Source of the DNA: a virus
Taxonomy: Duplodnaviria > Heunggongvirae > Uroviricota > Caudoviricetes
Virus record (IMG/VR): IMGVR_UViG_2740892236_000003
DNA: 25,153 nt
Direction: 5' to 3' (one strand)
Shown: positions 52 through 17,019 of the stretch, one piece after another
How the letters are laid out: each line of letters begins with the position of its first letter
How positions within the stretch are numbered: the stretch's first letter is position 1
Made by a program: the position numbers and the translations under genes
Notes under the pieces: model-generated
Seen by the model: only the letters and a program-made list of their open reading frames with translations
What the model was told of the DNA's origin: nothing
Database searches by the model: none

Positions 52-507
52 GTTGGCAGCATCACCAGCGAAGGTGATAACCGTTACCTGCGCAGGGAGC
101 AGAACGGCGCAGACATTCCGGATAAAGGGGCTTTTATCGATAACGTCGGTTTACGGGAAACGGTAAACAGGGCGGCGAATGCTCTGCCATCGGACGGCAC
201 CGCCGTTGCCGCGAATAGACTCGCCACCCCAAGAAATATTAATGGGGTTCCCTTTGACGGGACGCAGGACATAAACATCACTTCTGGTATAACACAGCAG
301 GATGCGGATTCCCGATATATCCAGGATATCAGGCTGGGAGCAGAGAACAGGCAGGTAATGTACGGTGGGGCATATTACTCTGCGTACGGTAATGTTATGG
401 CAGGCCTGCAGATTGACAGTAAAGTTGATGCTTCAAACGATTTTATAGCATTCAGACCCCTGCAAAAATTAGTCGGAGGTACATGGATTACGGTATCTCA
501 GTTATAA
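52..507 (+). CDS. Tail fibre C-terminal tip cassette (Sv-like), start-less, ~151 codons
   Basis: Frame 1 is open from 52 to TAA at 505-507 with no ATG or GTG near its 5' end. Translation ...[50 protein letters not shown]...[17 protein letters not shown]...[11 protein letters not shown] contains a GL(R/Q)ETVNRA(A/G)NA motif as recalled from P2 H at its constant/variable junction. In-frame TAA at 49-51, and stops in the other two frames at 41-43 and 75-77. Confidence 0.6.
134..159. other. Left invertase crossover site (gix/hix/cix-like, 26 bp)
   Basis: TTATCGATAACG-TC-GGTTTACGGGAA: two 12-nt half-sites around a central dinucleotide. It resembles Mu gixL as I recall it (TTATCCAAAACCTCGGTTTACAGGAA). 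Inverted relative to the site at 1451-1476 (central TC versus GA). Confidence 0.6.
134..249. repeat. Left arm of imperfect inverted repeat (~116 bp)
   Basis: The reverse complement of 134-249 aligns with 1341-1476 at roughly 85% identity by eye: identical runs of 23, 29 and 37 nt separated by a divergent ~25-nt patch. It encodes the shared N-proximal part of both fibre cassettes. Confidence 0.7.
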
Positions 508-558
508 ATAGTCAGTAAATAATATATTTTAAAACAGATTTATTTCCAGGAGGATTTT

Positions 559-1080
559 ATGGAACTAAAAAATATAACCCGTTATTATCCTGAAAATATG
601 CCATATGGTAATAATGTTCAGTATTTCCAGAGTGAAGATGGTAAGGATTTCTACGAATCCCTGCCATTATTCACCAAAAAATATAAACTTTGCATAACAC
701 CTGACAGCGGCGTTATCTGCTCAATATCACAGGACGCCTCGGCGCTGTATCCTGCGGGGTTTTCTGTGGTTGAGGTCGATGAACTCCCTGAAGGCACGGA
801 TATTTCAGGAAACTGGAAGTTTGATAATGGCATAATCTCCCGTATTCCGGTTAACTACGCAAGAAAACTGGAAGCAATGCGCCAGTCATATCTTAATCAG
901 GCATATGAAAAAATTAATGACTGGAGAACGGAGCTACAACTGGGCACCATCAGCGATGAAGACAGAGCAGCACTTACCCAATGGATGGCATACATCAGTC
1001 AGGTGAAGAAAATGGAACTACCCGCCATTAAAACAGAAGCTGAATTTAACGCCATTAAATGGCCTGAGCAGCCACAGTAA
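559..1080 (+). CDS. tfa: Tail fibre assembly protein (Tfa / Mu U-like chaperone)
   Basis: 173 aa. AGGAGG lies 6 nt upstream of the ATG. Sits immediately downstream of the fibre tip cassette. The C-terminal region (DEDRAALTQWMAYISQVKKMELPAIKTEAEFNAIKWPEQPQ) is typical of phage Tfa chaperones. The gene is AT-rich relative to the late operon. Confidence 0.8.
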   Translation: MELKNITRYYPENMPYGNNVQYFQSEDGKDFYESLPLFTKKYKLCITPDSGVICSISQDASALYPAGFSVVEVDELPEGTDISGNWKFDNGIISRIPVNYARKLEAMRQSYLNQAYEKINDWRTELQLGTISDEDRAALTQWMAYISQVKKMELPAIKTEAEFNAIKWPEQPQ

Positions 1081-1083
1081 TAA

Positions 1084-1103
1084 AGAAGGCCGGAAGGCCT
1101 TCT
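1084..1103. terminator. Hairpin between convergent tfa and minus-strand fibre cassette (possible bidirectional terminator)
   Basis: AGAAGGCC-GGAA-GGCCTTCT: perfect 8-bp stem with a 4-nt loop, flanked by AT-rich sequence on both sides. It lies exactly between the stop codons of the two convergent ORFs. Confidence 0.4.
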
Positions 1104-1111
1104 GAATATCA

Positions 1112-1495
1112 TTATATACTTGCAGCCGTCACCCATGCTCCATTTAACAGATACTGCAACGGCCGGTAATACACGCCGCCGACGTTATCTGCCGTATTCT
1201 TACCGACATCCTGTACTTTAATTCCGGTAAGAACATTGCCGCCCCCCAGATTCAGATCCCAGCTTTCCCATGTTCCGGGCATATGTGCGGTCACCGACCC
1301 CAGTCTTATGGCGGTTACTGTTCCTGATGAGATAGTGATATCCTGCGTCCCGTCAAAGGGAACACCATTAATTGTGTGGGCATTTGCCAGCCTGTTCGCG
1401 GCAACGGCGGTGCCGTCCGATGGCAGGGCATTCGCCGCCCTGTTTACCGTTTCCCGTAAACCGAGGTTTTCAGGAAAGCCAGGATTAACTCTGTT
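1112..1495 (-). CDS. Alternative tail fibre C-terminal tip cassette (S'v-like), start-less, ~127 codons
   Basis: The minus-strand frame is open from 1495 (just after an in-frame TAA at 1498-1496) to the stop at 1112. Translation ...[49 protein letters not shown]... then diverges into a different tip, ...HMPGTWESWDLNLGGGNVLTGIKVQDVGKNTADNVGGVYYRPLQYLLNGAWVTAASI. The first ~40 residues after the crossover site are shared with the plus-strand cassette. The Met reported by the ORF track at 1294 is an internal GTG. Confidence 0.6.
   Translation of the reverse strand, partial: NRVNPGFPENLGLRETVNRAANALPSDGTAVAANRLANAHTINGVPFDGTQDITISSGTVTAIRLGSVTAHMPGTWESWDLNLGGGNVLTGIKVQDVGKNTADNVGGVYYRPLQYLLNGAWVTAASI
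1341..1476. repeat. Right arm of imperfect inverted repeat
   Basis: Reverse-complement partner of 134-249; see the left arm. Confidence 0.7.
1451..1476. other. Right invertase crossover site (gix-like, 26 bp)
   Basis: TTCCCGTAAACC-GA-GGTTTTCAGGAA. Its reverse complement, TTCCTGAAAACC-TC-GGTTTACGGGAA, shares the inner half-site exactly with the left site. It lies 66 bp upstream of the invertase start, as gixR does for gin in Mu. Confidence 0.6.
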
Positions 1496-1541
1496 TTATT
1501 CCTCATGCGACAATTCCGGCTTTTTATAATAAGGAAATCGT

Positions 1542-2114
1542 ATGCTGATTGGGTATATCAGGGTGTCAACAAATGACCAGAATACGGCGCTACAAAGAAA
1601 TGCGCTGGAATGTGCAGGATGTGAGCTGTTTTTCGAAGACAGAATAAGCGGTAAGACAAGGGAGCGTCCCGGACTTAAACGCGCATTAAAGCGACTCCGG
1701 CCAGGGGATACCCTGCTGGTCTGGAAACTGGATCGCCTTGGACGCAGTATGCAGCACCTTGTCCTTTTAACAGAAGAACTCCGGCAACGCGGCGTTAACT
1801 TCCGCAGCATTACGGACAATATTGATACATCCACTCCCATGGGACGTTTCTTTTTCCATATAATGGGCGCGCTGGCGGAAATGGAGCGGGAACTCATTAT
1901 TGAACGTACACGCGCGGGTCTTGCTGCTGCCCGTGCTCAGGGGCGTCATGGCGGCAGACCTCAGAAACTGACAGAGAAAGAGCGGGAGCAAATCGCCCGT
2001 TTGCTGGCTAATGGCGAGTCCCGTAAACAAATCGCACTGATATTTGATATTGGCCTTTCCACCCTTTATCGTTATTTTCCTGCCTCACCAGCTCCGTCAC
2101 CAAAAGTACCGTGA
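1542..2114 (+). CDS. Serine DNA invertase (Gin/Pin/Hin/Cin family)
   Basis: 190 aa. The N-terminus MLIGYIRVSTNDQ carries the catalytic-serine motif of small serine recombinases; a resolvase-like core follows, and the C-terminus (QIALIFDIGLSTLYRY) is a helix-turn-helix. AAGGA lies upstream of the ATG. The gene abuts the invertible segment and reads away from it. Confidence 0.9.
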   Translation: MLIGYIRVSTNDQNTALQRNALECAGCELFFEDRISGKTRERPGLKRALKRLRPGDTLLVWKLDRLGRSMQHLVLLTEELRQRGVNFRSITDNIDTSTPMGRFFFHIMGALAEMERELIIERTRAGLAAARAQGRHGGRPQKLTEKEREQIARLLANGESRKQIALIFDIGLSTLYRYFPASPAPSPKVP

Positions 2115-2123
2115 CGCTTTTTT
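2095..2123 (+). terminator. Putative intrinsic terminator at the 3' end of the invertase gene
   Basis: CGTCAC-(10-nt loop)-GTGACG followed by C and TTTTTT (2118-2123). The stem overlaps the TGA stop codon. Confidence 0.45.
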
Positions 2124-2199
2124 GAATTTCCGCAAAACACATATTTTTCAGCGGTCGCTATTCTGACTCTGTTTAATTCAGAAACAGGCAGAAAAGACG

Positions 2200-4254
2200 A
2201 TGTCAGACTCCAAGTGGAAAATGCTCTCCGCCATGCCCGGAGAGTTTTCAGTCAAGGTTGCCGGTGGCACGGTGGCATTTATTGAAAGCCCTTTCCGCCC
2301 TTCGGGTAATAAAGGGGGGATCACCTTCGCAGACTGCGTGATCCGCTTCAGCACGAAAGAGCCATTATGGGTAATGCCGGTATCCGGTAATCCCAGTGCA
2401 GAAATCACCAGTTCAGGCGTGACTGGCATCATTCCAATCACATCTGACGTGGCCGGAACGCTCACGCCCTCCGACTGGAATGCACCGGATAACGCCGGGC
2501 CTTCCGGTAGCACGAATGGCAGCAGTTCAGAGCCGGAATATTACTTTGTTGTCATTCTCGCGGGTCAGTCAAATGGCATGGCCTACGGCGAGGGGCTGCC
2601 GTTACCGGATTCGTTTGACCGCCCGGACCCACGCATTAAGCAACTGGCACGCCGCAGTACGGTAACGCCCAACGGTACGTCGTGTACATACAACGACATC
2701 ATTCCGGCAGACCACTGCCTGCATGATGTTCAGGATATGAGCGGGATAAACCACCCGAAAGCTGATCTGGCAAAAGGCCAGTACGGGACTGTCGGTCAGG
2801 GGTTGCATATTGCCAAAAAACTGCTTCCCTATATCCCACAGAATGCCGGGATACTTCTGGTGCCCTGTTGTCGTGGCGGGTCAGCATTCACCACTGGAGC
2901 CGACGGCTCATTCAGTGAGGCCAGCGGTGCTTCCGCTGATTCTTCACGCTGGGGGGCCGGTAAACCTCTGTATCAGGACCTGGTAAGCCGCACCAAAGTC
3001 GCGCTGGCGAAAAACCCGAAAAACAAACTTCTGGCTGTGGTCTGGATGCAGGGAGAGGCAGACCTTGCCTCAGGAAGCCAGCAGCATAATAGTTTATTCA
3101 CGGCCATGGTTCAGCAGTTCAGAACTGACCTGGCTCCGCTTGCTGCGCAGTGCGTGAGTGGAAATGCCACCACGGTGCCGTGGATTTGCGGTGATACCAC
3201 GTATTACTGGAAAAACGCTGGCACCGATAAATATGAGGCAGTATACGGTGGCTACAAAGGCAAGGAAGCACAGAAAATTTTCTTTGTACCGTTCCTGACG
3301 GATGAGAATGGACAGAGCACGCCAACGAATGCTCCGGCGGAAGACCCGGATATTGTGGCTGTCGGGTATTACGGTGCAGCATCCCGAACCCAGGGCAGTT
3401 TTGTTTCGACACAGCGTGACAGCCATTTCAGCTCATGGGCACGCAGGGGCGTCATTTCAGACCGTCTGGCCTCAGCTATTATGCTCCATGCAGGGCGCAC
3501 GGCTGAACTGATGCGCGGGCAGACCGTGACACCACCGGATGAGAAGCCGTCACCTGATACACCATCAAAACCGTCCACGCCACCCGCAGACACCACGACG
3601 ATGAGTACGCTATTTGCTTACCGGGCATCTGAGTCTGAAGGACGGTTGACACCACAGGGTTGGGCTGCCGGAGGTGGCAAGGCTCAAATCGTGGATGATG
3701 CCGGAGCCAGCGGGGGTAAGGCAATGAAACTGACCAAGGAAACAGGAAGAGCCCCCTGGTACCTTGAGCATGATGCTGGTAATGGTGCGGACCTGCTGGG
3801 TAAAGGTGGTCTTGTCAGTTGTCGTTTTAAACTCGATGGCGCGCTTACGGCTAATCAGTACGCACTGGCGCTGTACTGGCCGGTTTCTGCCCTGCCGCAA
3901 GGGGTTACTCTGGAAGGAAATGCCGGTCATAACCTGCTGGCATCGTTCTACGTACAGAGCGATGCCACAGACCTTAACGTGATGTATCACAAAGGAAACA
4001 CGGCGCAGAACACGAAGCTGGGGTCATTCGGCGCATTTAATAACGAATGGCATACGCTGGGCTTCCGTTTTGCCGGTAACAACAGTATTGAGGTGACGCC
4101 GGTCATTGATGGTAAGGACGGGACACCATTCATGCTGTCGCAGTCTCCGGTCGGCACGTTTACGGCAGACAAGTTGCGCGTGACCGATATCACTAAAAAT
4201 GCGACTTACCCGGTACTGATTGACAGTATCGTGGTGGAAGTGAATAACGCGTAA
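2200..4254 (+). CDS. Multidomain SASA/SGNH-type carbohydrate O-acetylesterase-like protein (NanS-like) with Pro/Thr linker and C-terminal putative binding domain
   Basis: 684 aa. VVILAGQSNGMAYGEG (nt ~2545-2590) matches the GQSN catalytic block, and AVVWMQGEADL (nt ~3030-3060) the QGE(S/A)D block, of sialate O-acetylesterase (SASA) family hydrolases, both recalled from memory. A Pro/Thr-rich linker (PPDEKPSPDTPSKPSTPPADTT) precedes a ~230-aa C-terminal region that looks like a beta-sandwich or lectin-like domain. No N-terminal signal peptide is apparent. The RBS is weak and the start codon uncertain. Confidence 0.55.
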   Translation: MSDSKWKMLSAMPGEFSVKVAGGTVAFIESPFRPSGNKGGITFADCVIRFSTKEPLWVMPVSGNPSAEITSSGVTGIIPITSDVAGTLTPSDWNAPDNAGPSGSTNGSSSEPEYYFVVILAGQSNGMAYGEGLPLPDSFDRPDPRIKQLARRSTVTPNGTSCTYNDIIPADHCLHDVQDMSGINHPKADLAKGQYGTVGQGLHIAKKLLPYIPQNAGILLVPCCRGGSAFTTGADGSFSEASGASADSSRWGAGKPLYQDLVSRTKVALAKNPKNKLLAVVWMQGEADLASGSQQHNSLFTAMVQQFRTDLAPLAAQCVSGNATTVPWICGDTTYYWKNAGTDKYEAVYGGYKGKEAQKIFFVPFLTDENGQSTPTNAPAEDPDIVAVGYYGAASRTQGSFVSTQRDSHFSSWARRGVISDRLASAIMLHAGRTAELMRGQTVTPPDEKPSPDTPSKPSTPPADTTTMSTLFAYRASESEGRLTPQGWAAGGGKAQIVDDAGASGGKAMKLTKETGRAPWYLEHDAGNGADLLGKGGLVSCRFKLDGALTANQYALALYWPVSALPQGVTLEGNAGHNLLASFYVQSDATDLNVMYHKGNTAQNTKLGSFGAFNNEWHTLGFRFAGNNSIEVTPVIDGKDGTPFMLSQSPVGTFTADKLRVTDITKNATYPVLIDSIVVEVNNA

Positions 4255-4269
4255 GCAGGATAAAAAAAT

Positions 4270-4302
4270 GCCGCCGGTAAGGGAAAACAAGAAACCGGCG
4301 GC
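4270..4302 (-). terminator. GC-rich hairpin with a T-tract on the minus strand only
   Basis: GCCGCCGGT-(15-nt loop)-ACCGGCGGC, a 9-bp stem. On the plus strand it is followed by A-rich sequence, so it is a poor terminator for the esterase gene. On the minus strand it is followed by TTTTTTT. Confidence 0.3.
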
Positions 4303-4398
4303 AAAAAGATCGTTATATCCAAAGCAAAAAATGCAGTGCACCTTTTTACCTAACAGATATTACCGGTGTCAACACCATGTCAATAATTGGGAGGGATA

Positions 4399-4581
4399 AT
4401 GACATTTTTACAGCTTATTTTATTGTATTTCTGCACGGCAGTATGTGCGTTATATCTGGTGAGTGGTGGTTATAAGGCCATCAGAAATTATGTTCGCCGC
4501 AAAATTGAGGACGCAGCAGCTGAAAAACTCAGTAAAACAGCGCAGGTAACTCCGCTCCCAAAAGACCCGACCCAGCCCTGA
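4399..4581 (+). CDS. Small single-pass membrane protein (hypothetical)
   Basis: GGGAGGG lies 4-5 nt upstream of the ATG at 4399; the ORF track starts the frame at a TTG at 4387. The product is ~60 aa: a hydrophobic N-terminal segment (FLQLILLYFCTAVCALYLVSGGY) followed by a charged tail. Confidence 0.4.
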   Translation: MTFLQLILLYFCTAVCALYLVSGGYKAIRNYVRRKIEDAAAEKLSKTAQVTPLPKDPTQP

Positions 4582-4616
4582 TTGCAGGGCTTTATTCCCG
4601 CATAAGGAGGATATAC

Positions 4617-4871
4617 ATGCCAGAAATTAAAGGCACCGTCACTGAAGACCTGGTAAAACAGGCACTGTATTCCGGTGAAGTAAATAAGTTGCTGAAAGCG
4701 CAGGTCCGCAAGGATTTTGAGGCACAAATCGACACTTACGTTGATGAAGTGCTGGCAAAACTTATTGGGCCAGCAGTTGCGGCCAGTGATGCTGATAATG
4801 AGCCGAAAACCGACGCGCAGCCAGAGCAACCAGACCCGGCTCAGCCCGGAACTGACAGTACCATGATGTAA
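4617..4871 (+). CDS. Small acidic hypothetical protein
   Basis: 84 aa. A strong AAGGAGG lies 7 nt upstream of the ATG. The C-terminal half is acidic and Pro/Gln-rich. No recognisable family. Confidence 0.45.
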   Translation: MPEIKGTVTEDLVKQALYSGEVNKLLKAQVRKDFEAQIDTYVDEVLAKLIGPAVAASDADNEPKTDAQPEQPDPAQPGTDSTMM

Positions 4872-5264
4872 CAATACAAACCGGTGGTGTCCTCTGCCGG
4901 TTTGACACTAATGAAAACATCTTTGCCGCTATCCAGCCATATGTAATCGCTGGATAGTATTTCGTATTCAGAAATATAGCTGCTTATGGAGCAGTCAATC
5001 CTGCTTCCCCATCCGGGCAGGCAAATGAACCGGTATCATTAGTCCGATTCACGCTTTTGTAGAATCGTTCCCAGAATGCTATACAGCTCATTAGCCTGTT
5101 GCTCCATCATTGAGACGGAGGCTATACGGTGCAAAGTGATTTCAGGAGGTGGCACACCTCCATCTTCTTGCTGTGGAGGAAAAACATAAGATTTAATAAA
5201 AAAAGTTGAAGCATATGAACTCTCCCGCACTCGAACTGTATTTGCAGGCATCTGAATAATCGGA

Positions 5265-5274
5265 NNNNNNNNNN
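5265..5274. other. Assembly gap (10 N)
   Basis: A run of N. It truncates the minus-strand tail fibre ORF, and the translation beyond it is not protein-like. Confidence 0.95.
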
Positions 5275-5724
5275 TTTGCTGTAAACATCCAGATTATTAC
5301 GGGCGGTTCCCTTATTCTCCAGGTCGGCGAGATTCTGATCCTTCGCCAGGGCATTAACGTCAGCGGGACCAAGACTGTTTTTTGTGGCAAGCGTCCCCAG
5401 ACCAAGATAACCACGGGCCAGACGCTGGGCCTCCGCACCGGCATCAGCAATTTCTTTCAGGTTATTTTTCCGGGAAAAGGCATTCGCAGCGATAATGGCT
5501 TTAATGGACAGCGTAAGCTGGTTTAACTGCGCCTTATCCGGCTGAATACTGGCTTCAGCCAGAATATTCAGCAGTTCGGCCTGGAGAATATTCAGCCAGT
5601 CCTGACCAATCCAGCTGATACCTTTTTGTCCGTCACCTTCGGTAAACCAGGTGGTGGTATTACTCTGCGCCGGTGCCAGCGCAGGCATATTCGCCACGCC
5701 GGAATTATTATCAACATGAAACAT
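5275..5724 (-). CDS. Tail fibre protein, N-terminal constant part (Mu S-like), truncated by the gap
   Basis: The ATG at 5724 overlaps the stop of the upstream gp48-like gene (TAATG). The N-terminus MFHVDNNSGVANMPALAPAQSNTTTWFTEGDGQ... and the motif ...GYLGLGTLATKNSLGPADVNALAKDQNLADLENKGTARNNLDVYSK are typical of the N-terminal region of contractile-tail phage fibres. Only 150 codons are present before the N-run. Confidence 0.7.
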
Positions 5725-6284
5725 TAAATAGTCTCCTCTTCATGGCTGTTTGCATAAACGTAAATAAACGTCTGCCATGCAGGCTTATAACGGTTCAGAA
5801 TACATTCCAGCGCACCGCCTTCATAAATACGCAGCGGCGTGAGAATATCATCCAGCACATTCATATTCCGGTAGCCGGTTTCACTGTTAATCGTGACAAT
5901 ACTGACCCACTGCGAATCCGGTGAGGGCTGAATGTCAATCTGATAACCAAACTCCGCCGCAAACCGGATATAAAATTCACGGTTCAGCGAGGGCTTCATC
6001 CGGTATTTATTTCCGGCATAACGCTGTCGCTCCGTGAGGGTGGCTCCGGCCATATCACACTCGGGAAGCCCGAGATAACGCTCCCAGTCTTCCAGCAGCA
6101 GGCGCGACGTGTCAGGGAAACGCTCGGCAAGCAGCTGTTTACCCGTCCAGGATACACGCGCTGTCGAATGACTGAGGCCCAGACATAATGATGCCAGTAC
6201 GGATGACGGACGCTTGTCCCATGCCAGCCCGTCAGGCAGTAACTGCAACAGGGCGCGCTGATGCGGGGTCAGGGTTACAGCCAT
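5724..6284 (-). CDS. Baseplate/tail protein, Mu gp48 (R) / P2 gpI / YmfQ-like
   Basis: 186 aa. Lies between the baseplate J-like gene and the fibre gene. AGGAG RBS. Matches the Mu gp48 position and size. Confidence 0.7.
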   Translation of the reverse strand: MAVTLTPHQRALLQLLPDGLAWDKRPSSVLASLCLGLSHSTARVSWTGKQLLAERFPDTSRLLLEDWERYLGLPECDMAGATLTERQRYAGNKYRMKPSLNREFYIRFAAEFGYQIDIQPSPDSQWVSIVTINSETGYRNMNVLDDILTPLRIYEGGALECILNRYKPAWQTFIYVYANSHEEETI

Positions 6285-7357
6285 GTGATTTCTCCTACCG
6301 TCAGCAGCTCACTGTCTCCCGCCTGAACTGACGTCAGCGGACTGCGCACTTCAAAATCCTCCAGATTTTTCACCCCTGCCACCGCCCGCCAGAAAGACGA
6401 CGGCAGAACCAGACCGCCGGGCCGGGATTCGTTATACAACAGGTCGGTCAGCGCCTGTTTTACGGCCGCCTGATTCTCCGGTGTTTTCGGGATGCTCCTG
6501 ATGCTGAAGGGCACCGGCTTATTGGTCAGTTTAAACACGGTCACCGTCGGCCCCAGAGGCTGTCCGACAGGCTGGCCGGTCGCCGGATCATCATGACTGC
6601 GGATATAATCCGCCACCCGCTGAACATCACCGTCACCGGGGAAAATATCCGGGTTATTATCCTGAACAAACGTTACCCCCACGCTGCCCGCCTGCGGCCA
6701 TTCCGGGCGGCACCATGCCCGCGTCACGCCCGGCACTTCACGCGCCCAGCGTTCAAAATCATACTGCGTGCCGCCGGACGGTGGATTCTGCACCCGGAAA
6801 ACCAGACGGGAAAGCAGCTCCGGCACGGTTTCCACATCCGCACCACCGGTGATCCCCGTTCCGGTCACCGTGGCCGTCTGGTTGATCCCCGCCTGCGGTG
6901 TGATAAATGTCAGTTTTGTCCCTGCCGGGGCATTCCCCGCACGACCGGCACTTTCGGCTTCCACACTGACATTCAGCGTACCGGCCTTACCGGTCAGGGA
7001 GGTGGTGATACGGTAAACCACGCCATCACTTCGCTGGAGAAGCACACCTTCCTTGATCCCCGCATCCGTGGTCAGCATCAGCTGAACCGGCCCGTCCCCC
7101 CGAGAGGCAGGCTTACGCATGACGCCCCAGAATGCACAGTGTTTCAGCAGTTCGGCTTCATCGGCTTCGGTCGGGATGATCTGACGCGCAATCCAGGCCA
7201 GATGCTCATGCTCCTGAGCAGATAACCCTGCCTGAGCGTAAGCAATGGCATTCAGGGTGGTTTCATTCACACCCGGCTGCGAGCCGGGCAGGCGCTGGCT
7301 GATATCCTGCTGTGTCTGCGTGATTAACTGTGCCAGCGGTAAAGGCTGATAAGGCAT
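6275..7357 (-). CDS. Baseplate J-like protein (Mu gp47 / W)
   Basis: 360 aa. Position and size fit Mu gp47; sequence is typical of the Baseplate_J family. Confidence 0.8.
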   Translation of the reverse strand: MPYQPLPLAQLITQTQQDISQRLPGSQPGVNETTLNAIAYAQAGLSAQEHEHLAWIARQIIPTEADEAELLKHCAFWGVMRKPASRGDGPVQLMLTTDAGIKEGVLLQRSDGVVYRITTSLTGKAGTLNVSVEAESAGRAGNAPAGTKLTFITPQAGINQTATVTGTGITGGADVETVPELLSRLVFRVQNPPSGGTQYDFERWAREVPGVTRAWCRPEWPQAGSVGVTFVQDNNPDIFPGDGDVQRVADYIRSHDDPATGQPVGQPLGPTVTVFKLTNKPVPFSIRSIPKTPENQAAVKQALTDLLYNESRPGGLVLPSSFWRAVAGVKNLEDFEVRSPLTSVQAGDSELLTVGEITWL

Positions 7358-7794
7358 TACTCCCCCTTAAGATCAGCATAAAAAATCATGGGCCTCACTG
7401 AACCATCAGGCAGGGTTATGCGCACCGAAAGCGCCAGCCGCGCGTGTCCCACACGTTCTGCATGACAGACCACGGATGACGCCACGCCATCCTGACTGAG
7501 CCAGCCCAGCGCCTCATCCGCGTAAGCACGGGCACGGCTTATCACCGAGGCCAGCGTTTTTTCCCGGCTGAGAAGCCACAGACGGGAGCCAATGGGGCGC
7601 GGGCGAAAACTGTCTCCCCACCATCCCCGGCGGTCGCGCGTACCGTCAGGGATTTCATCCGATGCCAGCGCCCGGCGGTCAGTAAACAGCGAAATCAGAA
7701 CGGCCGTCAGCAGACTGTCATCCGTCAGCAGGTCGGCACCGTTCAGTTGCAGCGAACCGCATCCCTGATCCCACACAATTGCAATATCAGCCAT
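7357..7794 (-). CDS. Baseplate protein, Mu gp46-like (P2 gpW / T4 gp25-like)
   Basis: Real start is probably the internal ATG at 7794 (MADIAIVWDQGCGSLQLNGADLLTDD...), giving ~145 aa with GGAGA upstream. The ORF-track start at 7938 would overlap the upstream gene by 150 nt. Confidence 0.7.
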   Translation of the reverse strand: MADIAIVWDQGCGSLQLNGADLLTDDSLLTAVLISLFTDRRALASDEIPDGTRDRRGWWGDSFRPRPIGSRLWLLSREKTLASVISRARAYADEALGWLSQDGVASSVVCHAERVGHARLALSVRITLPDGSVRPMIFYADLKGE

Positions 7795-8401
7795 TCTCCG
7801 GCACTCCTGTCTTACTGCCTTCGCCGTTATCATGATGCACATGGCCGGAATACCGTATCCCTGCAATAACGGCATCCGACATTGTGAACAGTCCCTGAGA
7901 TTTCCCCGTACCCTCAAGCGCGAAATTACCCTTAACATGCAGGTTCTTATCCACCGTCACATTGCCCGTAAAGGTGGCTTCCGGCGTATCCACCCGCATC
8001 CCCTCGTCGGCGTAAATCTCCAGCATTTTGCATGTCACAATAATGCGGCCATCCTTTGTTAACCGTATCCGGTGCCCCTCATGGTGATACACCCCCGTAT
8101 CTCCGGCTGTGAGTCCGGTCGGGCGGCTGCGCCGGTCTTCCACCACAAGCACCACAGTCTGATCCCGCTGTCCGCCCAGACAGGCAAAAAAGGTTTCCGC
8201 ACCCGGCAGGGGAACGCTGATCTGCCCGTACTGCTGGGGACGCTCCACATCATCAAAGGTTTCGCCGTCCATGCCGGTGAGCTGCACATTCTGCATTTTC
8301 AGTTCGTCATGTGTGCCGGTCAGAACGCCCCGGCCAAACAACAGGCGAATACCGCGCGTTACCGGGGCAATCAGGCGGCTGAACACTTCATCATTCATCA
8401 A
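7787..8401 (-). CDS. Baseplate assembly/spike protein, Mu gp45 / P2 gpV-like
   Basis: 204 aa. Position between the P-like and gp46-like genes. Confidence 0.75.
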   Translation of the reverse strand: MMNDEVFSRLIAPVTRGIRLLFGRGVLTGTHDELKMQNVQLTGMDGETFDDVERPQQYGQISVPLPGAETFFACLGGQRDQTVVLVVEDRRSRPTGLTAGDTGVYHHEGHRIRLTKDGRIIVTCKMLEIYADEGMRVDTPEATFTGNVTVDKNLHVKGNFALEGTGKSQGLFTMSDAVIAGIRYSGHVHHDNGEGSKTGVPENG

Positions 8402-9515
8402 AGCTGATCCCCTGTTTTTTCATCTGCTGGCGAATAAAGGCATCAACATCGTCACCGGAACCACCCCGGCCCTTACTGTCCGGCTCTGCCGGAACGATAA
8501 AGCCGTCACGCGGTGCCAGTACCAGCCGGGTGACTTCCCCGTTATGCTCATCAAGTAAAAACTCCACCTGACAGACCAGCAGTTCAGTCTGTTCTATACC
8601 GAAACGCAGGGCTGAAACACCGGTCAGCAGATTGACATCCCATAACCGGCCATCATCCCGGAACCAGCCACGCACGGTGGCAGAAAACCGTTCTGAACGG
8701 GCAATCGCACGGCGCATTTCACGCAGGGCACGCTGCCGTGCACCGGTGATGTCTGTCTGTTGATCGGCGAGGATGATTTTCGGCCGGTAGCGGCCGATCT
8801 GCTCATCACTGATGACGCCCACAGGTGCTGCCAGACGGGCGGCGGATTCGCTGTCTCCCCGTTTGCCACCACCGCGCCCGTGTCCCCGGACACGGTATTC
8901 GCTGTATCGTCCTCGCCAGTCCGTGTTGTAATCGGCATCAAGCAGGTTATCTCCCAGCACCAGTCTGTCCGTCTGCTGGCTTCCTGCCTGGGTGAACACC
9001 AGATCGCCGTCAGCATTACTGGTCACCAGCACCCCGCGATGCCGGGCAGCACGGGTCAGCGCATCCGCCACGGTTTCTGAGTTTTCCAGCGTAAAAGAGC
9101 TGAAGGGGCGTGCAGCCGTGTCGTCGTTAACCTGCCAGCGCACGGCTATCCCGAAGGGCGCACATAAATCTGCGGCAATCTGTGCCAGCGTCCGGTTGCG
9201 CCACTGGCTGCCGGGATGGATGGCGGCACAGTCCACCAGGTCGCCGGTTTTATCCCGACCGCTGATGCTGATCTGATGACGGGTTGCACTGATCCGCTGA
9301 CTGACCTGATCCAGCCAGCCACTGATGACCGTCTGCCCGTTAATTCTGAGCGTCAGGGACTGACCGGTCCGCAGGGCTGAGGGGATGCGCTCACCGGGCA
9401 GCATCAGCCCCAGTTCAAACGACCCGGCCAGATGCTCCAGCGAGCGACGGACGCTGACCGTCAGCCAGCCGGAAAAAATACTGCCGCCGATATACAGTTC
9501 AATCCTGCTGCTCAC
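8391..9515 (-). CDS. Tail protein, Mu P (gp44) / P2 gpD-like
   Basis: 374 aa. Size and position match Mu gp44; MSSRIELYIGGSIFSGW... N-terminus. Confidence 0.75.
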   Translation of the reverse strand: MSSRIELYIGGSIFSGWLTVSVRRSLEHLAGSFELGLMLPGERIPSALRTGQSLTLRINGQTVISGWLDQVSQRISATRHQISISGRDKTGDLVDCAAIHPGSQWRNRTLAQIAADLCAPFGIAVRWQVNDDTAARPFSSFTLENSETVADALTRAARHRGVLVTSNADGDLVFTQAGSQQTDRLVLGDNLLDADYNTDWRGRYSEYRVRGHGRGGGKRGDSESAARLAAPVGVISDEQIGRYRPKIILADQQTDITGARQRALREMRRAIARSERFSATVRGWFRDDGRLWDVNLLTGVSALRFGIEQTELLVCQVEFLLDEHNGEVTRLVLAPRDGFIVPAEPDSKGRGGSGDDVDAFIRQQMKKQGISFDE

Positions 9516-10857
9516 TGATCACCTCCACGCGGCGGCCACCCGGAACAAAAACCGGATCGGGGATATTGTTTCTGCGGACAAAATACTGCCAGCGGCGGCT
9601 GTTACCGGTGGCACGGTACAGCGTGACCAGTGCCGGTTCGGTGGTTCGCACCATGACCTGAAAAGCACCGGGAAGATGCACGCTCCGCGTGGTTAAATCT
9701 TCTGTCAGCGCAAGCCCTGCATCACGTAATGCAAGGGCGGTGCCGGTATGGCCCTGTGCGGACAGATCCAGCACCTGTTGTTCCATGGCATCGCTCAAAT
9801 CCCGGTTGATACGCTGCACATCAGCAGAACTTTCCAGCCAGGCCAGTCCGCCCGCACGGTCAGTATCCTGAACGTGCGTCGTATTCTGCCGGATGACCTG
9901 ATCCAGCAGTTTTCCGACCGTCTGCGCCTGCGACACCAGGGCTGCACTCTGCATGACGCTCCGCAGCAGACGGATATTGTTCTGTGCCGCAGGCGTCAGA
10001 CCAATCAGGCGCTGCGGATCATCCTGTTCGCTGAGGGTGTAACGCAGGGAAGAAAGTGTGCGGTACAGCTGCGGCATGGCCTGCTCTGTCGTGCTGTCAC
10101 GGTTTGTGGTCAGGCTGCCGGACGGCGTTCCGGCTTTTCCGGTCAGCGACAGGGAAGGAGCGCCGGGCAGCCCCGCCAGCACGGCAAACATTCCGGCCAG
10201 CGATTCAGCCATGCGACGGGGCGCATTAATCAGGGCGGCGGCATTCCCTTTCAGGGCAGTAAAACTGGCCGTAAAGGCACTGATATCCTGCACAATCCCC
10301 ATCCCTGAAACGGCATTCTCCAGCGCATCAATTTTATCGCTGATGGTGTCGGTCATGGCCTGTACATCATGCAGACCGTCTGAAATCACCGTCCAGCCGT
10401 CTGAAAGTGTGTTAAACAGCTGATTCATTGCTGAGCCGCTTTTCTGCTCCAGCGCAGCTGCCGTATCTTCTGCCACCGAAGGGGCGGTATCGTCACTGGC
10501 GGGGATCACGTTGATCGTGAACTCAACCGTTCCCTGCTCGCTGGCGTTATAACGGCTTTCAAAGCTGTTTATCAGCACGTTTAACGTGCCGTAATCCGGG
10601 TGCATCAGTTCACCGGCACCGGGTGCACGCAGCGCATCACGCAGGCGGCTTCGCTGTGTCTGAAGATCGTCTCCGGTCACTAGAACCGTGAATGTGAACT
10701 CCGGGAGTTTTGGCCCCAGATCATCCGCACCGCCGCTTTCACGCAGTGGGTATTCACGGCGCACAATGTTACGTCCGCCCCGTTCCCGCTGCTCCTGATA
10801 AACCAGGAACGGTACGCCACGAAAGGAGCCACGCCCCGGCGTGTCAGTAGAGGCCAT
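9499..10857 (-). CDS. DNA circularisation protein N-like tail protein (Mu gp43)
   Basis: 452 aa. The N-terminal region (GSFRGVPFLV...) resembles the DNA-circulation N-terminal domain. Sits directly downstream of the tape measure gene. Confidence 0.75.
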   Translation of the reverse strand: MASTDTPGRGSFRGVPFLVYQEQRERGGRNIVRREYPLRESGGADDLGPKLPEFTFTVLVTGDDLQTQRSRLRDALRAPGAGELMHPDYGTLNVLINSFESRYNASEQGTVEFTINVIPASDDTAPSVAEDTAAALEQKSGSAMNQLFNTLSDGWTVISDGLHDVQAMTDTISDKIDALENAVSGMGIVQDISAFTASFTALKGNAAALINAPRRMAESLAGMFAVLAGLPGAPSLSLTGKAGTPSGSLTTNRDSTTEQAMPQLYRTLSSLRYTLSEQDDPQRLIGLTPAAQNNIRLLRSVMQSAALVSQAQTVGKLLDQVIRQNTTHVQDTDRAGGLAWLESSADVQRINRDLSDAMEQQVLDLSAQGHTGTALALRDAGLALTEDLTTRSVHLPGAFQVMVRTTEPALVTLYRATGNSRRWQYFVRRNNIPDPVFVPGGRRVEVISEQQD

Positions 10858-12901
10858 AGTTCCCTCCGTTCCAGACGTTCACATCCAGGCCATGCTGTGC
10901 GGTATCATCCACATCAATACTGCGCGCCCGCCAGCCTTCAGGGGCCACAAGCTCCACCCGTGCGGCGGTTTTCGCGGTGGCCTGTCCGCCGTTTTCGTCA
11001 CTGCTGCCACGCAGTTTCTGCCAGGCCTGCGTCAGCCAGCCCCCCAGATAATCACCGAGATAGCTGCCCACCGTGGAACCAATGGCAACCCCGACCGGAC
11101 CGGCAGCCGCCCCCAGCGCGCCACCGGCGATACTTCCGGCAAGAGAACCCACGGCACCGGCTTTATCGGCTGCACTGGCGCTGCTGTCCAGCAGTACAGG
11201 AGCCGCCATGGCACCGGCCCACAGGGCACCACCACCCAGCCGACCGGCACCACGGAACAGCCCGGCAAAACGCCCCAGCCCCATGCGGTTTCCGGCCGCC
11301 GTTAGCAGACCACCGGCACGGCTCATCATACGACCGAAGAAGCCCTGTTTACCGGCACTCTCCGCCAGTTGCTCACCGGCAGTCACGACGGTCGTGACAC
11401 CCCGTCCACGTCCGGGGCCGCGTTTTTTACGGCCGCGCACGGTTTTGCCGTCACCGCTGACCACCACATCCCCGCCACCTGAGGCCAGGCCACCCGCAGG
11501 CCAGTTGGTGACCAGCACGGGCTGAACGGCAGCCGGATTTACCCCGGTAAGGAAATTCAGGAACCGGCCAGCGCGTCCGGGCTGCGTTCCCGGTACAGTG
11601 GTCTGCGGTTTGCGGAAGGGCGACGTCAGCACGGAGGTCATCGCCATGCCATAGCGTAAGGGGGTTGCGCCGAGACGTAATGCCCCCGTCCCTGCAAACC
11701 TGAGCACCTTCAGCGCACGGGAGGCGAGATACATATACATCAGGTACTTTGCGGCGGTCTGCGCACCCTGACCAATACGATCCAGCGCATCGCCATAACC
11801 GGCGTCGCGCAGTGCCTGAAGCGTTTCCCTGACTTTCTGAATGGCCCGGTAAAAGCCGGTCGCAGCATCTCTGGCATACTCAAATCCCTGATTCAGTGCT
11901 GAGGCCGTCTGTGTGGCCAGCTTATCCTGTAAGCCGCTTTTCTGTGCCGCATCGGCATAATCCAGAAAGCCTTTCAGGCTCTTTTTCAGGCTGTCAAACG
12001 GTCCCTTCGCCATCACGTCACGGGCAAACTGATCCCAGACGTCACCCATCATGGACGTCATTCCCGTCCATGAGTTCATGGCGTTTTTCTGGGCACCTTT
12101 TGCCTGTTCGGCCATCACCTGAAATAACAGGCGAATGCTGTCCGGTCCCAGTTTTCCTTTCTCGCCTTTCTCACGGATGATCTTCTGGTTTACACCCAGC
12201 TTATCGGCCAGTAACTGGTAAACGTTAATCCCGTATCCGGTCAGAATATTGGCGTCCGCTGCCTGGATACTCTGGCGGGCAAACATCTGTTTGAGTTGCA
12301 GGGACGCACCCTGTGCCTCTGACAGTGACCAGCCGTGATAGCCGCCCTGATCCTGAAGCATGGTAATAAAGCGACGGGCTTCCCTGTCACTCATGCCAAA
12401 CCCGCGACTGGAGGCGTATTCCTGCATAACCCCCGCCAGCCCCCAGGTGGTGTCTTTGGCGTTCTGTACCGCCCAGGCTTTCACTGCTTCCGTTTTTGCC
12501 TTATCGCCATGATTAATGGCGTTGAGACGCAGAATATAGTTCTCCATCTCTGCGGCCGGGCGGATAAAGGCTTTATTAAAACCGTAGACCGCAGCCCCTC
12601 CCGCCAGCATCCCGTAAAGGTTGCTTATCCGCCCGATGGTGCCGGTAATGCTGCCCTGCAGGCGGTCAAAATCTGACGTTACCGTGCGGATACTGCCACG
12701 AACACCGGCAAGCGTTCGCTGCATACGGGAGCCAACAAGCTCTGTTTCCTGACCTGCCCGGCGTGCTGCATTTCCAAGACCACCCAGCCCCGTCCTGCCG
12801 GAACGGGAGAATGCCCCCAGCTCCTGTGACCACTGGCGGGATTTGGCGGAAATATTGCCGAGTAAATCGACAATCAGGGAGGCTTTCAGGTTTTTTGCCA
12901 T
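10844..12901 (-). CDS. Tail tape measure protein (Mu Y / gp42-like)
   Basis: 685 aa, alpha-helical, Ala/Gly/Gln-rich with a Gly-rich C-terminal region. Downstream of the sheath, tube and chaperone genes. Confidence 0.85.
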   Translation of the reverse strand: MAKNLKASLIVDLLGNISAKSRQWSQELGAFSRSGRTGLGGLGNAARRAGQETELVGSRMQRTLAGVRGSIRTVTSDFDRLQGSITGTIGRISNLYGMLAGGAAVYGFNKAFIRPAAEMENYILRLNAINHGDKAKTEAVKAWAVQNAKDTTWGLAGVMQEYASSRGFGMSDREARRFITMLQDQGGYHGWSLSEAQGASLQLKQMFARQSIQAADANILTGYGINVYQLLADKLGVNQKIIREKGEKGKLGPDSIRLLFQVMAEQAKGAQKNAMNSWTGMTSMMGDVWDQFARDVMAKGPFDSLKKSLKGFLDYADAAQKSGLQDKLATQTASALNQGFEYARDAATGFYRAIQKVRETLQALRDAGYGDALDRIGQGAQTAAKYLMYMYLASRALKVLRFAGTGALRLGATPLRYGMAMTSVLTSPFRKPQTTVPGTQPGRAGRFLNFLTGVNPAAVQPVLVTNWPAGGLASGGGDVVVSGDGKTVRGRKKRGPGRGRGVTTVVTAGEQLAESAGKQGFFGRMMSRAGGLLTAAGNRMGLGRFAGLFRGAGRLGGGALWAGAMAAPVLLDSSASAADKAGAVGSLAGSIAGGALGAAAGPVGVAIGSTVGSYLGDYLGGWLTQAWQKLRGSSDENGGQATAKTAARVELVAPEGWRARSIDVDDTAQHGLDVNVWNGGNYGLY

Positions 12902-13028
12902 GGGTTACTGCTTCGTTCTGAGAATTTTTTCGGTCTGTCGGCAGTGCCGGTAAAGCTGCGATAAGGGGAGGTTAAGCGCCCACTCCGGGCCGCTTTTTGT
13001 CACCATCCCCAGCACAATTGCGGCTTCT

Positions 13029-13508
13029 TCAATCTGATCCCGGCACTGCATCTGGTCGCCCCCGTTCAGCGACCAGCTTTCCTGCCATCGCGGAATCAAG
13101 CAGGCTTACCGCCGCCATCAGACGGGAGAGATCGCGCTCGCTGAGCTGTCCGATCTGACGCGGAGACAATGGCCCCTCAATCTGGCCAACAGCGGCAATC
13201 TGACGGCGCAGCAGTGCAATGCCGCGCAGTGCCGGCGAGGCTATCAGAACCGGGCCGCCATTTCGGGTTTCCATAAGACGCTCGGCCTCGGTTTCCGCGT
13301 CAATGCTGTCTTTCGCCGTCAGTTCGCGGAAGGTGACGCGGTATTCACGGGATTCCCCGAACGGCAGACCGTCGAGCAGATCCACATAGCCGTTCGCCAG
13401 CTGTTCAGCCAGCCCGGCGGTGCGGGGATCGCCGTCTTCAAGTACATCCCGGATAGCCTCCATCACGGCCTCGTCAGAAACCGCCGTTTTTTTCTTACGT
13501 GTGGTCAT
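13029..13508 (-). CDS. Tail assembly chaperone (Mu gp41-like), positional call
   Basis: 159 aa, acidic. Lies between the tail tube and tape measure genes, the conserved chaperone slot. Confidence 0.5.
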   Translation of the reverse strand: MTTRKKKTAVSDEAVMEAIRDVLEDGDPRTAGLAEQLANGYVDLLDGLPFGESREYRVTFRELTAKDSIDAETEAERLMETRNGGPVLIASPALRGIALLRRQIAAVGQIEGPLSPRQIGQLSERDLSRLMAAVSLLDSAMAGKLVAERGRPDAVPGSD

Positions 13509-13522
13509 TGCATTTTTCCTGA

Positions 13523-13888
13523 TTACTGGACACGGGTACTGGTGGCGCTGGCGAACTTCGCGGAGATATCACCGCCACCGTCAAGCGAGGCCGGTTCACT
13601 GCTCCAGGCCTTCGTCATCATATGGACTTCACCGGTATCGGCCACGAACTCAATCGTGACCGCAGTCCAGGTGTTGATTTCATCGGCAGCCGGTGAACCT
13701 TCTCCGCCAGCCGGAAATTTACAGTCCAGCGTCGCCTCACGGGGTTTCTCACGATAGCCATAGACTTTCGCGCCTTTCACCACTTCACGCTCAAAGCCGG
13801 ACGGGGAGAACGTGGCTCCCTCAAGGGTGGCGTACTCCTGTCCGTTCACACGGATGGTGGCCGTGCCCTGATGCTGTTTTCCGCTCAT
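13523..13888 (-). CDS. Tail tube protein (Mu M-like)
   Basis: 121 aa, immediately downstream of the sheath gene. Confidence 0.75.
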   Translation of the reverse strand: MSGKQHQGTATIRVNGQEYATLEGATFSPSGFEREVVKGAKVYGYREKPREATLDCKFPAGGEGSPAADEINTWTAVTIEFVADTGEVHMMTKAWSSEPASLDGGGDISAKFASATSTRVQ

Positions 13889-13896
13889 GCCTTACC

Positions 13897-15399: not shown

Positions 15400-15686
15400 C
15401 AGGACGTCCCCTTGTCTGATGCTGCGGGTTTTTCAGTCGCGGGTTTTTCAGTCGCAGGTTTTTCTGCTGCCGCTCCCGCGGGTTTTCCGGCGGCATCAGT
15501 CGTTGCAGACGCTGCTGCCGGTGCTGCTTCAGCCGCTTTTTCCACCACAATGACATCCCCGTCATTAAGACGGCGGCACCAGAACGGGGTGAAGGGTTTT
15601 TCCTCTCCCTCCTGCGCCAGCGGTTTCATGGTGTCCGGATCGCGGATCAGGCATCCCGGCGCGGGTTTGATAAAAATGGTTGTCAT
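15399..15686 (-). CDS. Mu gp38-like small protein with (EKPAT)n repeat tail
   Basis: 95 aa. N-terminus MTTIFIKPAPGCLIRDPDTMKPL...GDVIVVEKA. The C-terminus is a low-complexity Ala/Glu/Lys/Pro repeat encoded by the 15-bp tandem repeat at 15424-15468. Confidence 0.6.
   Translation of the reverse strand: MTTIFIKPAPGCLIRDPDTMKPLAQEGEEKPFTPFWCRRLNDGDVIVVEKAAEAAPAAASATTDAAGKPAGAAAEKPATEKPATEKPAASDKGTS
15424..15468. repeat. 15-bp tandem direct repeat, 3 copies (third imperfect)
   Basis: GCGGGTTTTTCAGTC, GCGGGTTTTTCAGTC, GCAGGTTTTTCTGCT. On the minus strand it encodes EKPATEKPATEKPAA in the gp38-like protein. Confidence 0.8.
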
Positions 15687-15689
15687 CTG

Positions 15690-16669: not shown

Positions 16670-17019
16670 GCGCGAGCCTTTTTCGCCTGTCTGGCGTTAT
16701 TGCCGGTCTTTTTCCGGGGAGCATCCTGTCCGGCTTCGGCTAAATCTGCACCGGTCTCTGCATGAACCACACCCGCCACGGCTCCCGCATCATCACCAGG
16801 CGTCTGTAGTATTCGTACAGTGAGGCATGGCTCCGCTTCCAGTCGGGCAAGCTGCTCCGGGGTGACGTCAACCTGCTGGCGTCCCCGCATGAACAGGAAC
16901 CCCGCACGACGAAACTGCGCACGACTGCAACGCACTTCTGCCAGTACCGTGACAGGACTGTCACCACTGACCTGAAGGCCTGAATCATCTGTTGCTGCCA
17001 CAGTGTGATGTTCATTCAT
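16666..17019 (-). CDS. Hypothetical protein (Mu gp35 position)
   Basis: 117 aa, in the slot directly after the major capsid gene; 4-nt overlap with the downstream gene. The competing ORF 16740-17015 in another frame is less protein-like. Confidence 0.4.
   Translation of the reverse strand: MNEHHTVAATDDSGLQVSGDSPVTVLAEVRCSRAQFRRAGFLFMRGRQQVDVTPEQLARLEAEPCLTVRILQTPGDDAGAVAGVVHAETGADLAEAGQDAPRKKTGNNARQAKKARA

Follow-up and report, generated by a model that had tools for sequence, protein, structure and literature searches.

Textbooks have described the DNA inversion switches driven by Gin, Cin, Pin and Hin since the 1980s. In the G segment of phage Mu, the constant part of the tail-fibre gene S (Sc) is followed by gixL, the variable tip Sv, U and, further on, the alternative tip Sv', gixR and gin, with gin pointing away from the segment; in the wider genome the order is gp47, gp48, S, the segment and gin, then com and mom. 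The window analysed here, a stretch of 25,153 nucleotides from the Caudoviricetes record IMGVR_UViG_2740892236_000003, shares both of these orders. Its two crossover sites agree with Mu gix at 22/26 (left site versus gixL) and 21/26 positions and have the same TC/GA core, its Sc and tail-fibre assembly protein (Tfa) have their homologues in Mu S and U, and at the protein level the crossover falls at the same position, FI(D/Q)N(V/L)GL(R/Q)ETVN. However, the site-to-site distance is about 3,058 bp in Mu and 1,317 bp in the window, the Mu fibre has 504 aa compared to 296 and 293 aa for the window lineage, and Mu has the two chaperones U and U' where the window has one tfa gene. The inverted repeats measure 41 nt in Mu and about 145-154 bp in the window, and the spacer from site to ATG is 54 and 65 bp, respectively. 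In addition, a 684-aa DUF6645/SASA esterase gene separates com/mom from the invertase gene in the window prophage, and its Sc is severed by IS1.

Other members of the family differ more in their layout. The C segment of P1/P7 has 26-bp cix sites, alternative fibre tips with Tfa genes and an enhancer annotated in the 5' end of cin, whose product is 73% identical to the window invertase and belongs to the same family, but cin is reversed, its 3' end adjoining cixL, the core is AA/TT, and the 4-kb segment has one or more chaperone genes for each tip. The e14 element of E. coli K-12 is, like the window prophage, defective and has a small fibre-tip segment, the P segment, with 1,797 bp between its arms. 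Here, pin adjoins the segment across a 54-bp spacer and the segment is flipped by PinE and also by PinQ in trans, which shows that such switches continue to flip in crippled prophages; unlike the window prophage, e14 is lambdoid, has two tfa genes (tfaP, tfaE) and has a TT/AA core. The Hin/H system of Salmonella uses a recombinase of the same family, 26-bp sites and a Fis enhancer located in the gene of the recombinase, at a distance of about 100 bp from the closest site (about 106 bp predicted in the window), but it flips a flagellin promoter, hin lies inside the segment and fibre genes are not involved. The phage collection contained no close relative, the best matches being Mu-like inserts in Stx phages (76-78%).

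We consider it likely that this region corresponds to the G segment in a Mu-like prophage of E. coli, in which the DNA probably flips but the IS1-severed fibre gene yields no fibre product. It is an unexceptional, probably orphaned member of a well-known class and is of little importance for the basic mechanism. Sequencing has already revealed inversions in prophages of E. coli, a Mu prophage among them, and in the Mu prophage of EPEC E2348/69 both segment orientations were detected experimentally in a clonal culture (Goldberg et al., 2014; PMC4272514). The modest practical value of the locus lies in the documentation of a miniature 1.3-kb G-type cassette, which RefSeq labels just as "hypothetical protein" and "recombinase family protein", and in a crossover that can be cleanly mapped in natural genomes. 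It also illustrates that the assembled orientation of such a locus is arbitrary and is even able to confuse scaffolding.

Crossover Sites and Inverted Repeats

134-159, + strand: left crossover site, gixL-like (winL), TC core at 146-147; TTATCGATAACG TC GGTTTACGGGAA
1451-1476, + strand: right crossover site, gixR-like (winR), GA core at 1463-1464; TTCCCGTAAACC GA GGTTTTCAGGAA
134-287, + strand: left inverted-repeat arm, with a divergent patch at about 225-247
1323-1476, - strand: right inverted-repeat arm

The original prediction placed a pair of gix-like sites, inverted relative to each other, at the outer ends of inverted repeats, and proposed that they be aligned with published crossover sites. 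A degenerate 26-mer derived from the Mu gix, P7 cix and e14 pix sites alone, allowing ≤2 mismatches, matches 134-159 and 1451-1476 and nowhere else in 25 kb, where 0.09 matches are expected by chance; both sites align with Mu gix, and the pair thus stands as proposed. The same search found no third or fourth site in the 25 kb, as would occur in shufflon, Min or EPEC P2-like layouts. The likeness to Mu gixL and gixR extends beyond the sites into their flanks (...ACGGTAAACAGGGC). Both sites are 26-bp imperfect palindromes in inverted orientation with a common asymmetric central dinucleotide: TC in winL and GA in winR represent one and the same asymmetric core in the two possible directions, which is the arrangement needed for inversion. 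The left outer half-site TTATCGATAACG is two positions off the AAACC consensus, and the same site has recombined in the E. coli genomes NCCP 13983 and FORC_029 described below.

The inverted repeats exist as predicted but are slightly longer than the 116-136 bp first given. An outer stretch of 86 nt (139-224/1386-1471) has 93% identity and an inner stretch of 50 nt (238-287/1323-1372) has 84%; joined by BLAST, the arms span 142-145 nt at 87%, with an overall length of about 145-154 bp. The divergent patch of about 25 bp noted earlier was recovered as a patch of about 23 bp, at roughly 225-247, where one tip has the encoded residues ATPRN and the other ANAHT. The shared coding segment is mosaic, as had been remarked, which is correct though unremarkable, the arms encoding a common fibre motif.

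The Invertible Segment and Its Single Chaperone Gene

160-507, + strand: variable tip Sv, open in frame with the site and now joined to the Sc remnant
559-1080, + strand: tail-fibre assembly (chaperone) gene tfa, 173 aa, the sole one in the segment (Pfam Caudo_TAP, 4.8e-19)
1084-1103, no strand assigned: G+C-rich hairpin between tfa and Sv', terminator-like on the - strand, i.e., 3' of Sv'
1112-1450, - strand: alternative tip Sv', open in frame with the site (1450-1112), without a downstream chaperone gene

Between the sites lie 1,317 bp with two fibre tips in opposite orientation and a single gene for tail-fibre assembly, in agreement with the alternative tips on opposite strands that had been proposed. 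The C-terminus of Sv is homologous to the tip of Mu S (the second matched stretch of PDB 5YVQ_A). Sv' forms part of the 293-aa fibre WP_000469166/9 in genomes with the flipped segment, and is 45-52% identical to the tips of P1, SfMu and P2-like phages. Tfa matches the Mu U structure chain PDB 5YVQ_B (E 4.2e-16) and shows 32% identity with Mu U and 36% with Mu U'.

The tips do not each have a chaperone gene of their own, as Sv' is followed by the hairpin and by tfa in antisense. An O157:H7 relative has the same one-tfa layout, and related copies of the segment occur in about 236 complete genomes. The compact segment with its single chaperone gene is thus a conserved feature of this E. coli Mu-like prophage lineage. 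It may represent a truly asymmetric switch, although we regard this as rather unlikely. If so, the Sc-Sv' fibre, which belongs to the commoner flipped state, would be made without a co-transcribed chaperone. A single Tfa might then serve both tips from an orientation-independent promoter, Sv' might fold chaperone-free, or one state might be deliberately fibre-defective. The Sv' tip is assigned to the Tfa-dependent Mu/P1/P2 class, and a sigma-70 scan, which is blind to Mu-type late promoters, found no - strand promoter able to drive tfa in the flipped state. The layout raises a small, testable question on the supply of tail-fibre chaperones.

Invertase and Predicted Enhancer

1542-2114, + strand: Gin-family serine DNA invertase, 190 aa, intact (Pfam Resolvase, 1.6e-51; HTH_7, 4.9e-15)
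1560-1627, + strand: predicted Fis-dependent recombinational enhancer, by homology to the annotated P7 cin enhancer (cin nt 19-86)

A Gin-family invertase had been placed 66 bp beyond the right site; it is indeed found there, 65 bp from site to start, with both Pfam domains of the family, in which an N-terminal catalytic domain with its nucleophile at Ser9/10 is followed by a C-terminal HTH. The protein shares 72-74% identity with Gin and Cin and matches the NCCP 13983 invertase at 100%, and the catalytic residues R7-V8-S9, R65 and R68 are invariant in its alignment with Gin and Cin. Also invariant are Q150, R153 and L154, which correspond to Hin Q151, R154 and L155, while K46, R47 and K50 occupy Hin positions 47, 48 and 51, the numbering of the two proteins being offset by one residue. 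In Hin, Q151, R154 and L155, together with the basic residues at 47, 48 and 51, make contact with Fis and the enhancer and are reported to be conserved uniquely in Fis-dependent invertases (PMC3798978).

A Fis-binding enhancer had been expected within 1600-1720; homology to P7 cin instead puts it at about 1560-1627. Two candidate 15-bp G-N13-C cores lie in this stretch, at 1563-1577 and 1612-1626, 49 bp apart. Synonymous-codon identity in 1560-1627 is 0.60 to Mu gin and 0.71 to e14 pin, versus 0.35 and 0.39 elsewhere in the gene, a comparison confounded by the strong conservation of the overlapping protein.

In the proposed mechanism, the invertase would bind the two 26-bp gix-like sites, and Fis bound to the enhancer within the 5' end of the invertase gene would presumably assist it. 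The invertase would cut both sites at the central TC/GA, rotate the ends and rejoin them, which would invert the 1,317 bp. In an intact prophage, the 176-codon Sc of gene S would be joined either to Sv, followed by tfa, or to Sv', giving fibres of 296 and 293 aa with presumably two receptor specificities. Systems of the Gin/Cin/Pin/Hin family characteristically depend on Fis and on negative supercoiling. For the present locus, we infer the dependence on Fis and the enhancer, the change of host range and continued flipping in the source genome. As sites, enhancer region and invertase all appear intact, flipping of the DNA is probably still possible there.

Natural Inversion in Escherichia coli Genomes

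The switch works in nature, as identical copies have been inverted at the predicted site in E. coli. In the near-clonal E. coli genomes NCCP 13983 and FORC_029, the flanks are 100% identical over 3,000 bp on each side, and the segments have opposite orientations. The interior of the segment is identical but reversed, and just the outer half-sites remain with the flanks. The exchange maps to the 19-nt sequence TCGGTTTACGGGAAACGGT, which starts at the predicted core and is the sole perfectly identical block around the crossover, bounded by mismatches. Among close copies in complete E. coli genomes, five have the orientation of the window and 18 are flipped; the complete genomes of DLI.5a, TOE17 and AST46 have two copies of the region each, one per orientation.

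Inverted repeats of about 150 bp could in principle also recombine through RecA, and the differences in orientation would then arise without the invertase. With 142-154 bp at 87%, versus 41 nt in Mu, the arms are of unusual length, and compared to NCCP 13983 some arm SNPs are apparently homogenised between the two arms of the window segment, which suggests gene conversion. Nevertheless, we consider RecA-dependent inversion very improbable: the exchange in the clonal pair took place in the 19-nt block from the core, and the inner arm markers kept their linkage to the tips. RecA normally needs identity longer than such a block. The locus has both an intact Gin homologue and sites homologous to gix, and efficient inversion is established for the Gin, Cin and Pin systems.

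The segment in the source genome itself might be a frozen relic in decaying prophage DNA that no longer inverts, for instance through a lack of invertase expression. Several related copies are frozen, with frameshifted invertases, the frameshift in the DLI.5a invertase lying at the run of five T that corresponds to 1847-1851, and the window prophage itself is damaged by IS1. A sigma-70 scan, with Mu-type late promoters outside its reach, found no promoter upstream of the invertase. In contrast, the invertase reading frame in the window is intact and identical to that of a lineage with a flipped segment, and both sites are identical to functional ones, which makes a frozen segment doubtful.

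IS1 and the Divided Constant Fibre Part

1-66, - strand: last 66 bp of an IS1 copy that continues to the left, outside the window; 100% identity to the terminus of K-12 IS1A
67-145, + strand: the 26 codons (151-176) left of the constant fibre part Sc, without a start codon
5265-5274, no strand: 10-N assembly gap dividing the switch contig from the contig with the rest of the prophage
5275-5724, - strand: detached N-terminal 150 codons of Sc, beside the gap and directly after gp48- and gp47-like baseplate genes of a Mu-like prophage

Identity to K-12 IS1A reaches the last base of IS1A, beyond which the sequences diverge, and position 67 of the window corresponds to position 451 in the fibre gene of DLI.5a and NCCP 13983, which has 296 codons. 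The other half of Sc stops exactly at the complementary coordinate beside the 10-N gap; codons 1-150 lie 5.2 kb from the remnant, on the opposite strand. Sc is homologous to Mu S (E 6.7e-51), and its detached part corresponds to Mu S residues 1-191. The junction between IS1 and Sc has no 9-bp target duplication. It has no exact match in the public genome-contig and metagenome-contig collections scanned and is absent from the complete E. coli genomes in the collection, in which matches begin at window position 67.

The reading frame of Sc meets a stop within IS1, and no ATG, GTG or TTG occurs in it before 358; after the IS1 cut, the longest reading frames that can start in the tip frames encode 49 aa (Sv) and 60 aa (Sv'). 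As there is no start codon upstream of either tip, flipping cannot alter the host range in this window. Fusion of Sc across a site to one of two tips is found in intact relatives, with fibres of 296 and 293 aa, and not in the window. The original prediction that inversion swaps the tip on the constant part and switches host range therefore stands in its anatomy and mechanism, but does not apply here, where Sc is cut by IS1. In the window, IS1 adjoins codon 151, with codons 1-150 and the late operon 5.2 kb away on the other strand past the gap. The window would probably represent an orphaned switch, flipping without the ability to produce either fibre.

The large-scale structure is uncertain and could be a 5.2-kb inversion bounded by IS1, a mis-oriented contig or two collapsed prophage copies. 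Under the last of these, the switch might be fully functional in the source, the IS1 junction coming from a second, degraded prophage copy or from a subpopulation, and the intact prophage (contig 5275-24434) sharing the collapsed switch contig, so that a complete S would exist and inversion would alter the host range. Such a situation has parallels in DLI.5a, TOE17 and AST46, where two copies occur in opposite orientations. The contig with Sc codons 1-150 ends where the IS1-bounded contig starts, with no target duplication, which fits a break at a repeat boundary in the assembly graph, and read pairs from a flipped copy would be expected to link Sc on the second contig to Sv' on the first in the observed scaffold orientation. 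However, the junction of the 66-bp IS1 end with Sc codon 151 lies within a contig, which means that at least one copy is truncated, and the window has no sequence that is continuous across Sc codons 150/151. We therefore consider a fully functional switch unlikely.

A more remote possibility, by analogy with e14, is that the IS1-orphaned switch still flips and has been co-opted by the host. PinQ-driven inversion of the e14 P segment creates StfE2, which blocks adsorption of phage T2 and provides a precedent for defence by inversion of a cryptic-prophage fibre (PMC12529663). In the window, the short reading frames left in the tip frames (≤49 aa for Sv, ≤60 aa for Sv') and the lack of any sign of expression argue against such a role, which we regard as highly improbable.

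Divergence of two prophage copies was also considered as the cause of the contig break and was rejected, as both DLI.5a copies continue through com and mom. Separately, thousands of IS1 matches to the window are explained by bases 1-66.

Architecture of the Invertible Segment

The window is a Mu-like prophage, and the two alternative tail-fibre tips of its fibre gene S (Sv and Sv') lie in a segment of 1,317 bp that is bounded by two 26-bp gix-like crossover sites.

Features of the window (coordinates, strand where given, description)
1-66, terminal 66 bp of IS1
134-159, left crossover site, TTATCGATAACG-TC-GGTTTACGGGAA
160-507, + strand, tip Sv, open frame from the left site
559-1080, tfa, the sole tail-fibre assembly gene between the tips (Pfam Caudo_TAP, 4.8e-19; PDB 5YVQ_B, Mu U, 4e-16)
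1084-1103, G+C-rich hairpin between the tips
1450-1112, - strand, tip Sv', open frame from the right site
1451-1476, right crossover site, TTCCCGTAAACC-GA-GGTTTTCAGGAA
1542-2114, invertase, starting 65 bp past the right site (Pfam Resolvase and HTH_7)
2200-4254, 684-aa protein, SASA (sialate-O-acetylesterase-like) at residues 117-312 and C-terminal DUF6645
5725-24434, - strand, morphogenetic module (gp48-/gp47-like baseplate, tape measure, sheath, head/capsid, portal, and terminase genes)

The original prediction of two gix-like sites in inverted orientation, with inverted repeats, a tip on each strand and a Gin-family invertase just outside the right site, is confirmed as an observation. A degenerate 26-mer built from six reference sites (Mu gixL/gixR, P7 cixL/cixR, and e14 pixL/pixR) matches the 25-kb window with at most two mismatches at exactly these two places, while 0.09 matches are expected from shuffles. 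The left site is identical to Mu gix at 22 of 26 positions and the right site at 21 of 26, and the likeness extends into the flanks. The central dinucleotides, TC and GA, represent one asymmetric core in opposite orientations, an arrangement that in this invertase family leads to inversion.

Each site forms the outer end of one arm of an inverted repeat. The arms comprise two parts, one of 86 nt (93% identity) and one of 50 nt (84%), separated by a divergent patch of ~23 bp. BLAST merges both parts into 142-145 nt at 87%, slightly longer than first proposed. In E. coli NCCP 13983, which carries a related prophage, three SNPs distinguish the Sv and Sv' arms (GGTGAATAAGG vs. GGTAAACAGGG, window positions 164-170 vs. 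1440-1446); in the window the two arms do not differ there, suggesting that gene conversion has acted between the repeats.

Both strands are open when read inward from each crossover site. Sv and Sv' share a protein stretch encoded by the repeats and have a related C-terminus, (F/Y)RPLQ..(V/L)(G/N)G(T/A)W, the same motif as in the S and S' tips of Mu. A 97-aa ORF (1236-1529, + strand) runs antisense to Sv' and crosses the right site; part of it is annotated in RefSeq as hypothetical protein WP_071995513.1, but it is probably a spurious call.

The Invertase and Its Predicted Enhancer

The invertase is intact, 72-74% identical to Gin and Cin (the invertases of Mu and P1/P7) and identical to that of NCCP 13983, and all its catalytic residues are invariant. 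It also has the residues singled out as unique to Fis/enhancer-dependent invertases (McLean et al., PMC3798978). The gene contains a T5 homopolymer (1847-1851), which in E. coli DLI.5a is T4, resulting in a frameshift; in other genomes, several copies that are frozen and degraded likewise have frameshifted invertases.

The original prediction pointed to 1600-1720 as the place to search for a Fis-binding enhancer, but homology to the annotated enhancer of P7 cin (cin nt 19-86) places the predicted element at 1560-1627 instead. Two candidate 15-bp G...C cores (1563-1577 and 1612-1626) are spaced 49 bp centre to centre. About 106 bp separate the first of them from the middle of the right site, the native distance in Hin being ~100 bp (PMC3798978). 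Codon identity at identical amino acids in this stretch of only ~20 codons is 0.60 with Mu gin and 0.71 with e14 pin, compared to 0.35 and 0.39 elsewhere, which fits an additional constraint at the DNA level, small as the sample is.

The right site and the ATG are separated by 65 bp (1477-1541), compared to 54 bp in Mu and e14, a difference of 11 bp or about one helical turn. This spacer contains a perfect TATAAT (1525-1530) without a convincing -35; lying so near the ATG, it would leave no space for the AAGGA ribosome-binding site.

Natural Inversion in E. coli

As far as genome sequences can tell, nature has already run the inversion experiment. In E. coli NCCP 13983 (5,189,943 bp) and FORC_029 (5,189,944 bp), the 3,000-bp flanks on either side of the segment are 100% identical and the flanking proteins have the same accessions; the segment interior is identical yet reversed. 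Alignment of the four junctions shows that the outer half-sites remain with the flanks (TTATCGATAACG on the fibre side, its counterpart on the invertase side), while markers 18 nt inside the core move with the tips, which maps the exchange within TCGGTTTACGGGAAACGGT, a block of 19 nt that starts with the predicted core and is flanked by mismatches at either end. Recombination of the RecA type between the 150-bp arms would also reverse the segment, but an exchange confined to so short a block argues against it.

Three genomes (DLI.5a, TOE17, and AST46) each harbor two copies, one per orientation. In the complete E. coli genomes, the orientation of the window (the constant part Sc joined to Sv) occurs in 5 close copies and the flipped one (Sc-Sv', without a downstream chaperone gene) in 18, a bias toward Sc-Sv'.

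A Switch Detached, as Assembled, From Its Fibre Gene

The original reading of an invertase-driven tip switch holds for the family but not for this copy. The window opens with the end of an IS1 element, which matches K-12 IS1A at 100% as far as the annotated terminus; it cuts the fibre gene at codon 150/151 and adjoins codon 151 of Sc. Followed back from Sc, the reading frame runs into a stop within the IS1 sequence, and ATG, GTG, and TTG are all absent before 358, leaving translatable only 49 aa of Sv or, once flipped, 60 aa of Sv'. A 9-bp target duplication of IS1 is not visible at the IS1/Sc junction. This junction lies inside a contig, and at least one copy is therefore truncated.

Sc codons 1-150 occupy 5724-5275 of the other strand; the gp48-like gene immediately precedes them, and they end at a gap of 10 N. 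Positions 67-5264 are collinear with DLI.5a at 99.96%, and 5275-6130 resumes at the immediately preceding DLI.5a base, but reversed. As assembled, the switch, the invertase and the cargo genes are detached from the late operon and inverted relative to it, so that flipping, as read from this assembly, cannot change host range here.

As a draft scaffold with two 10-N gaps (5265-5274 and 24435-24444), the window is not reliable in its long-range order and orientation. The 150-bp stretches on the two sides of the second gap are near-duplicates (24285-24434 vs. 24446-24595, 97.3%) and look like an unmerged contig overlap with read-end errors. The reversal at the first gap has three possible explanations: a true IS1-bounded inversion of 5.2 kb whose second IS1 has collapsed into the gap, a contig placed in the wrong orientation, or two prophage copies collapsed during assembly.

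Comparison With Mu and Related Systems

The switch belongs to a thoroughly known family, and prophage fibre inversion in E. coli is already documented, both by experiment, Mu prophage included (PMC4272514), and in systematic surveys listing Mu-type fibre inversions (PMC9881135). The window shares with Mu the order of constant part, left site, tips, right site, and invertase, but its segment is shorter (1,317 bp vs. ~3.06 kb in Mu and 1.8 kb in e14), as is the fibre of its lineage (~295 vs. 504 aa in Mu). Whereas Mu, P1/P7, and e14 have at least one chaperone gene per tip, the segment has one in total, a layout kept in an O157:H7 relative. In the flipped, commoner state, the hairpin and tfa in antisense orientation come after Sc-Sv', yet the Sv' tip shares 45-52% identity with those of P1, SfMu, and P2-like phages.

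Downstream of the invertase follow the 684-aa DUF6645/SASA esterase gene and genes for DUF1378 and DUF826, with com and mom next in complete relatives. The 684-aa gene is kept between the invertase and com/mom in Mu-like prophages of E. coli, O157:H7 included, whereas Mu has nothing at this position; it probably encodes cargo or a carbohydrate-modifying virion enzyme.
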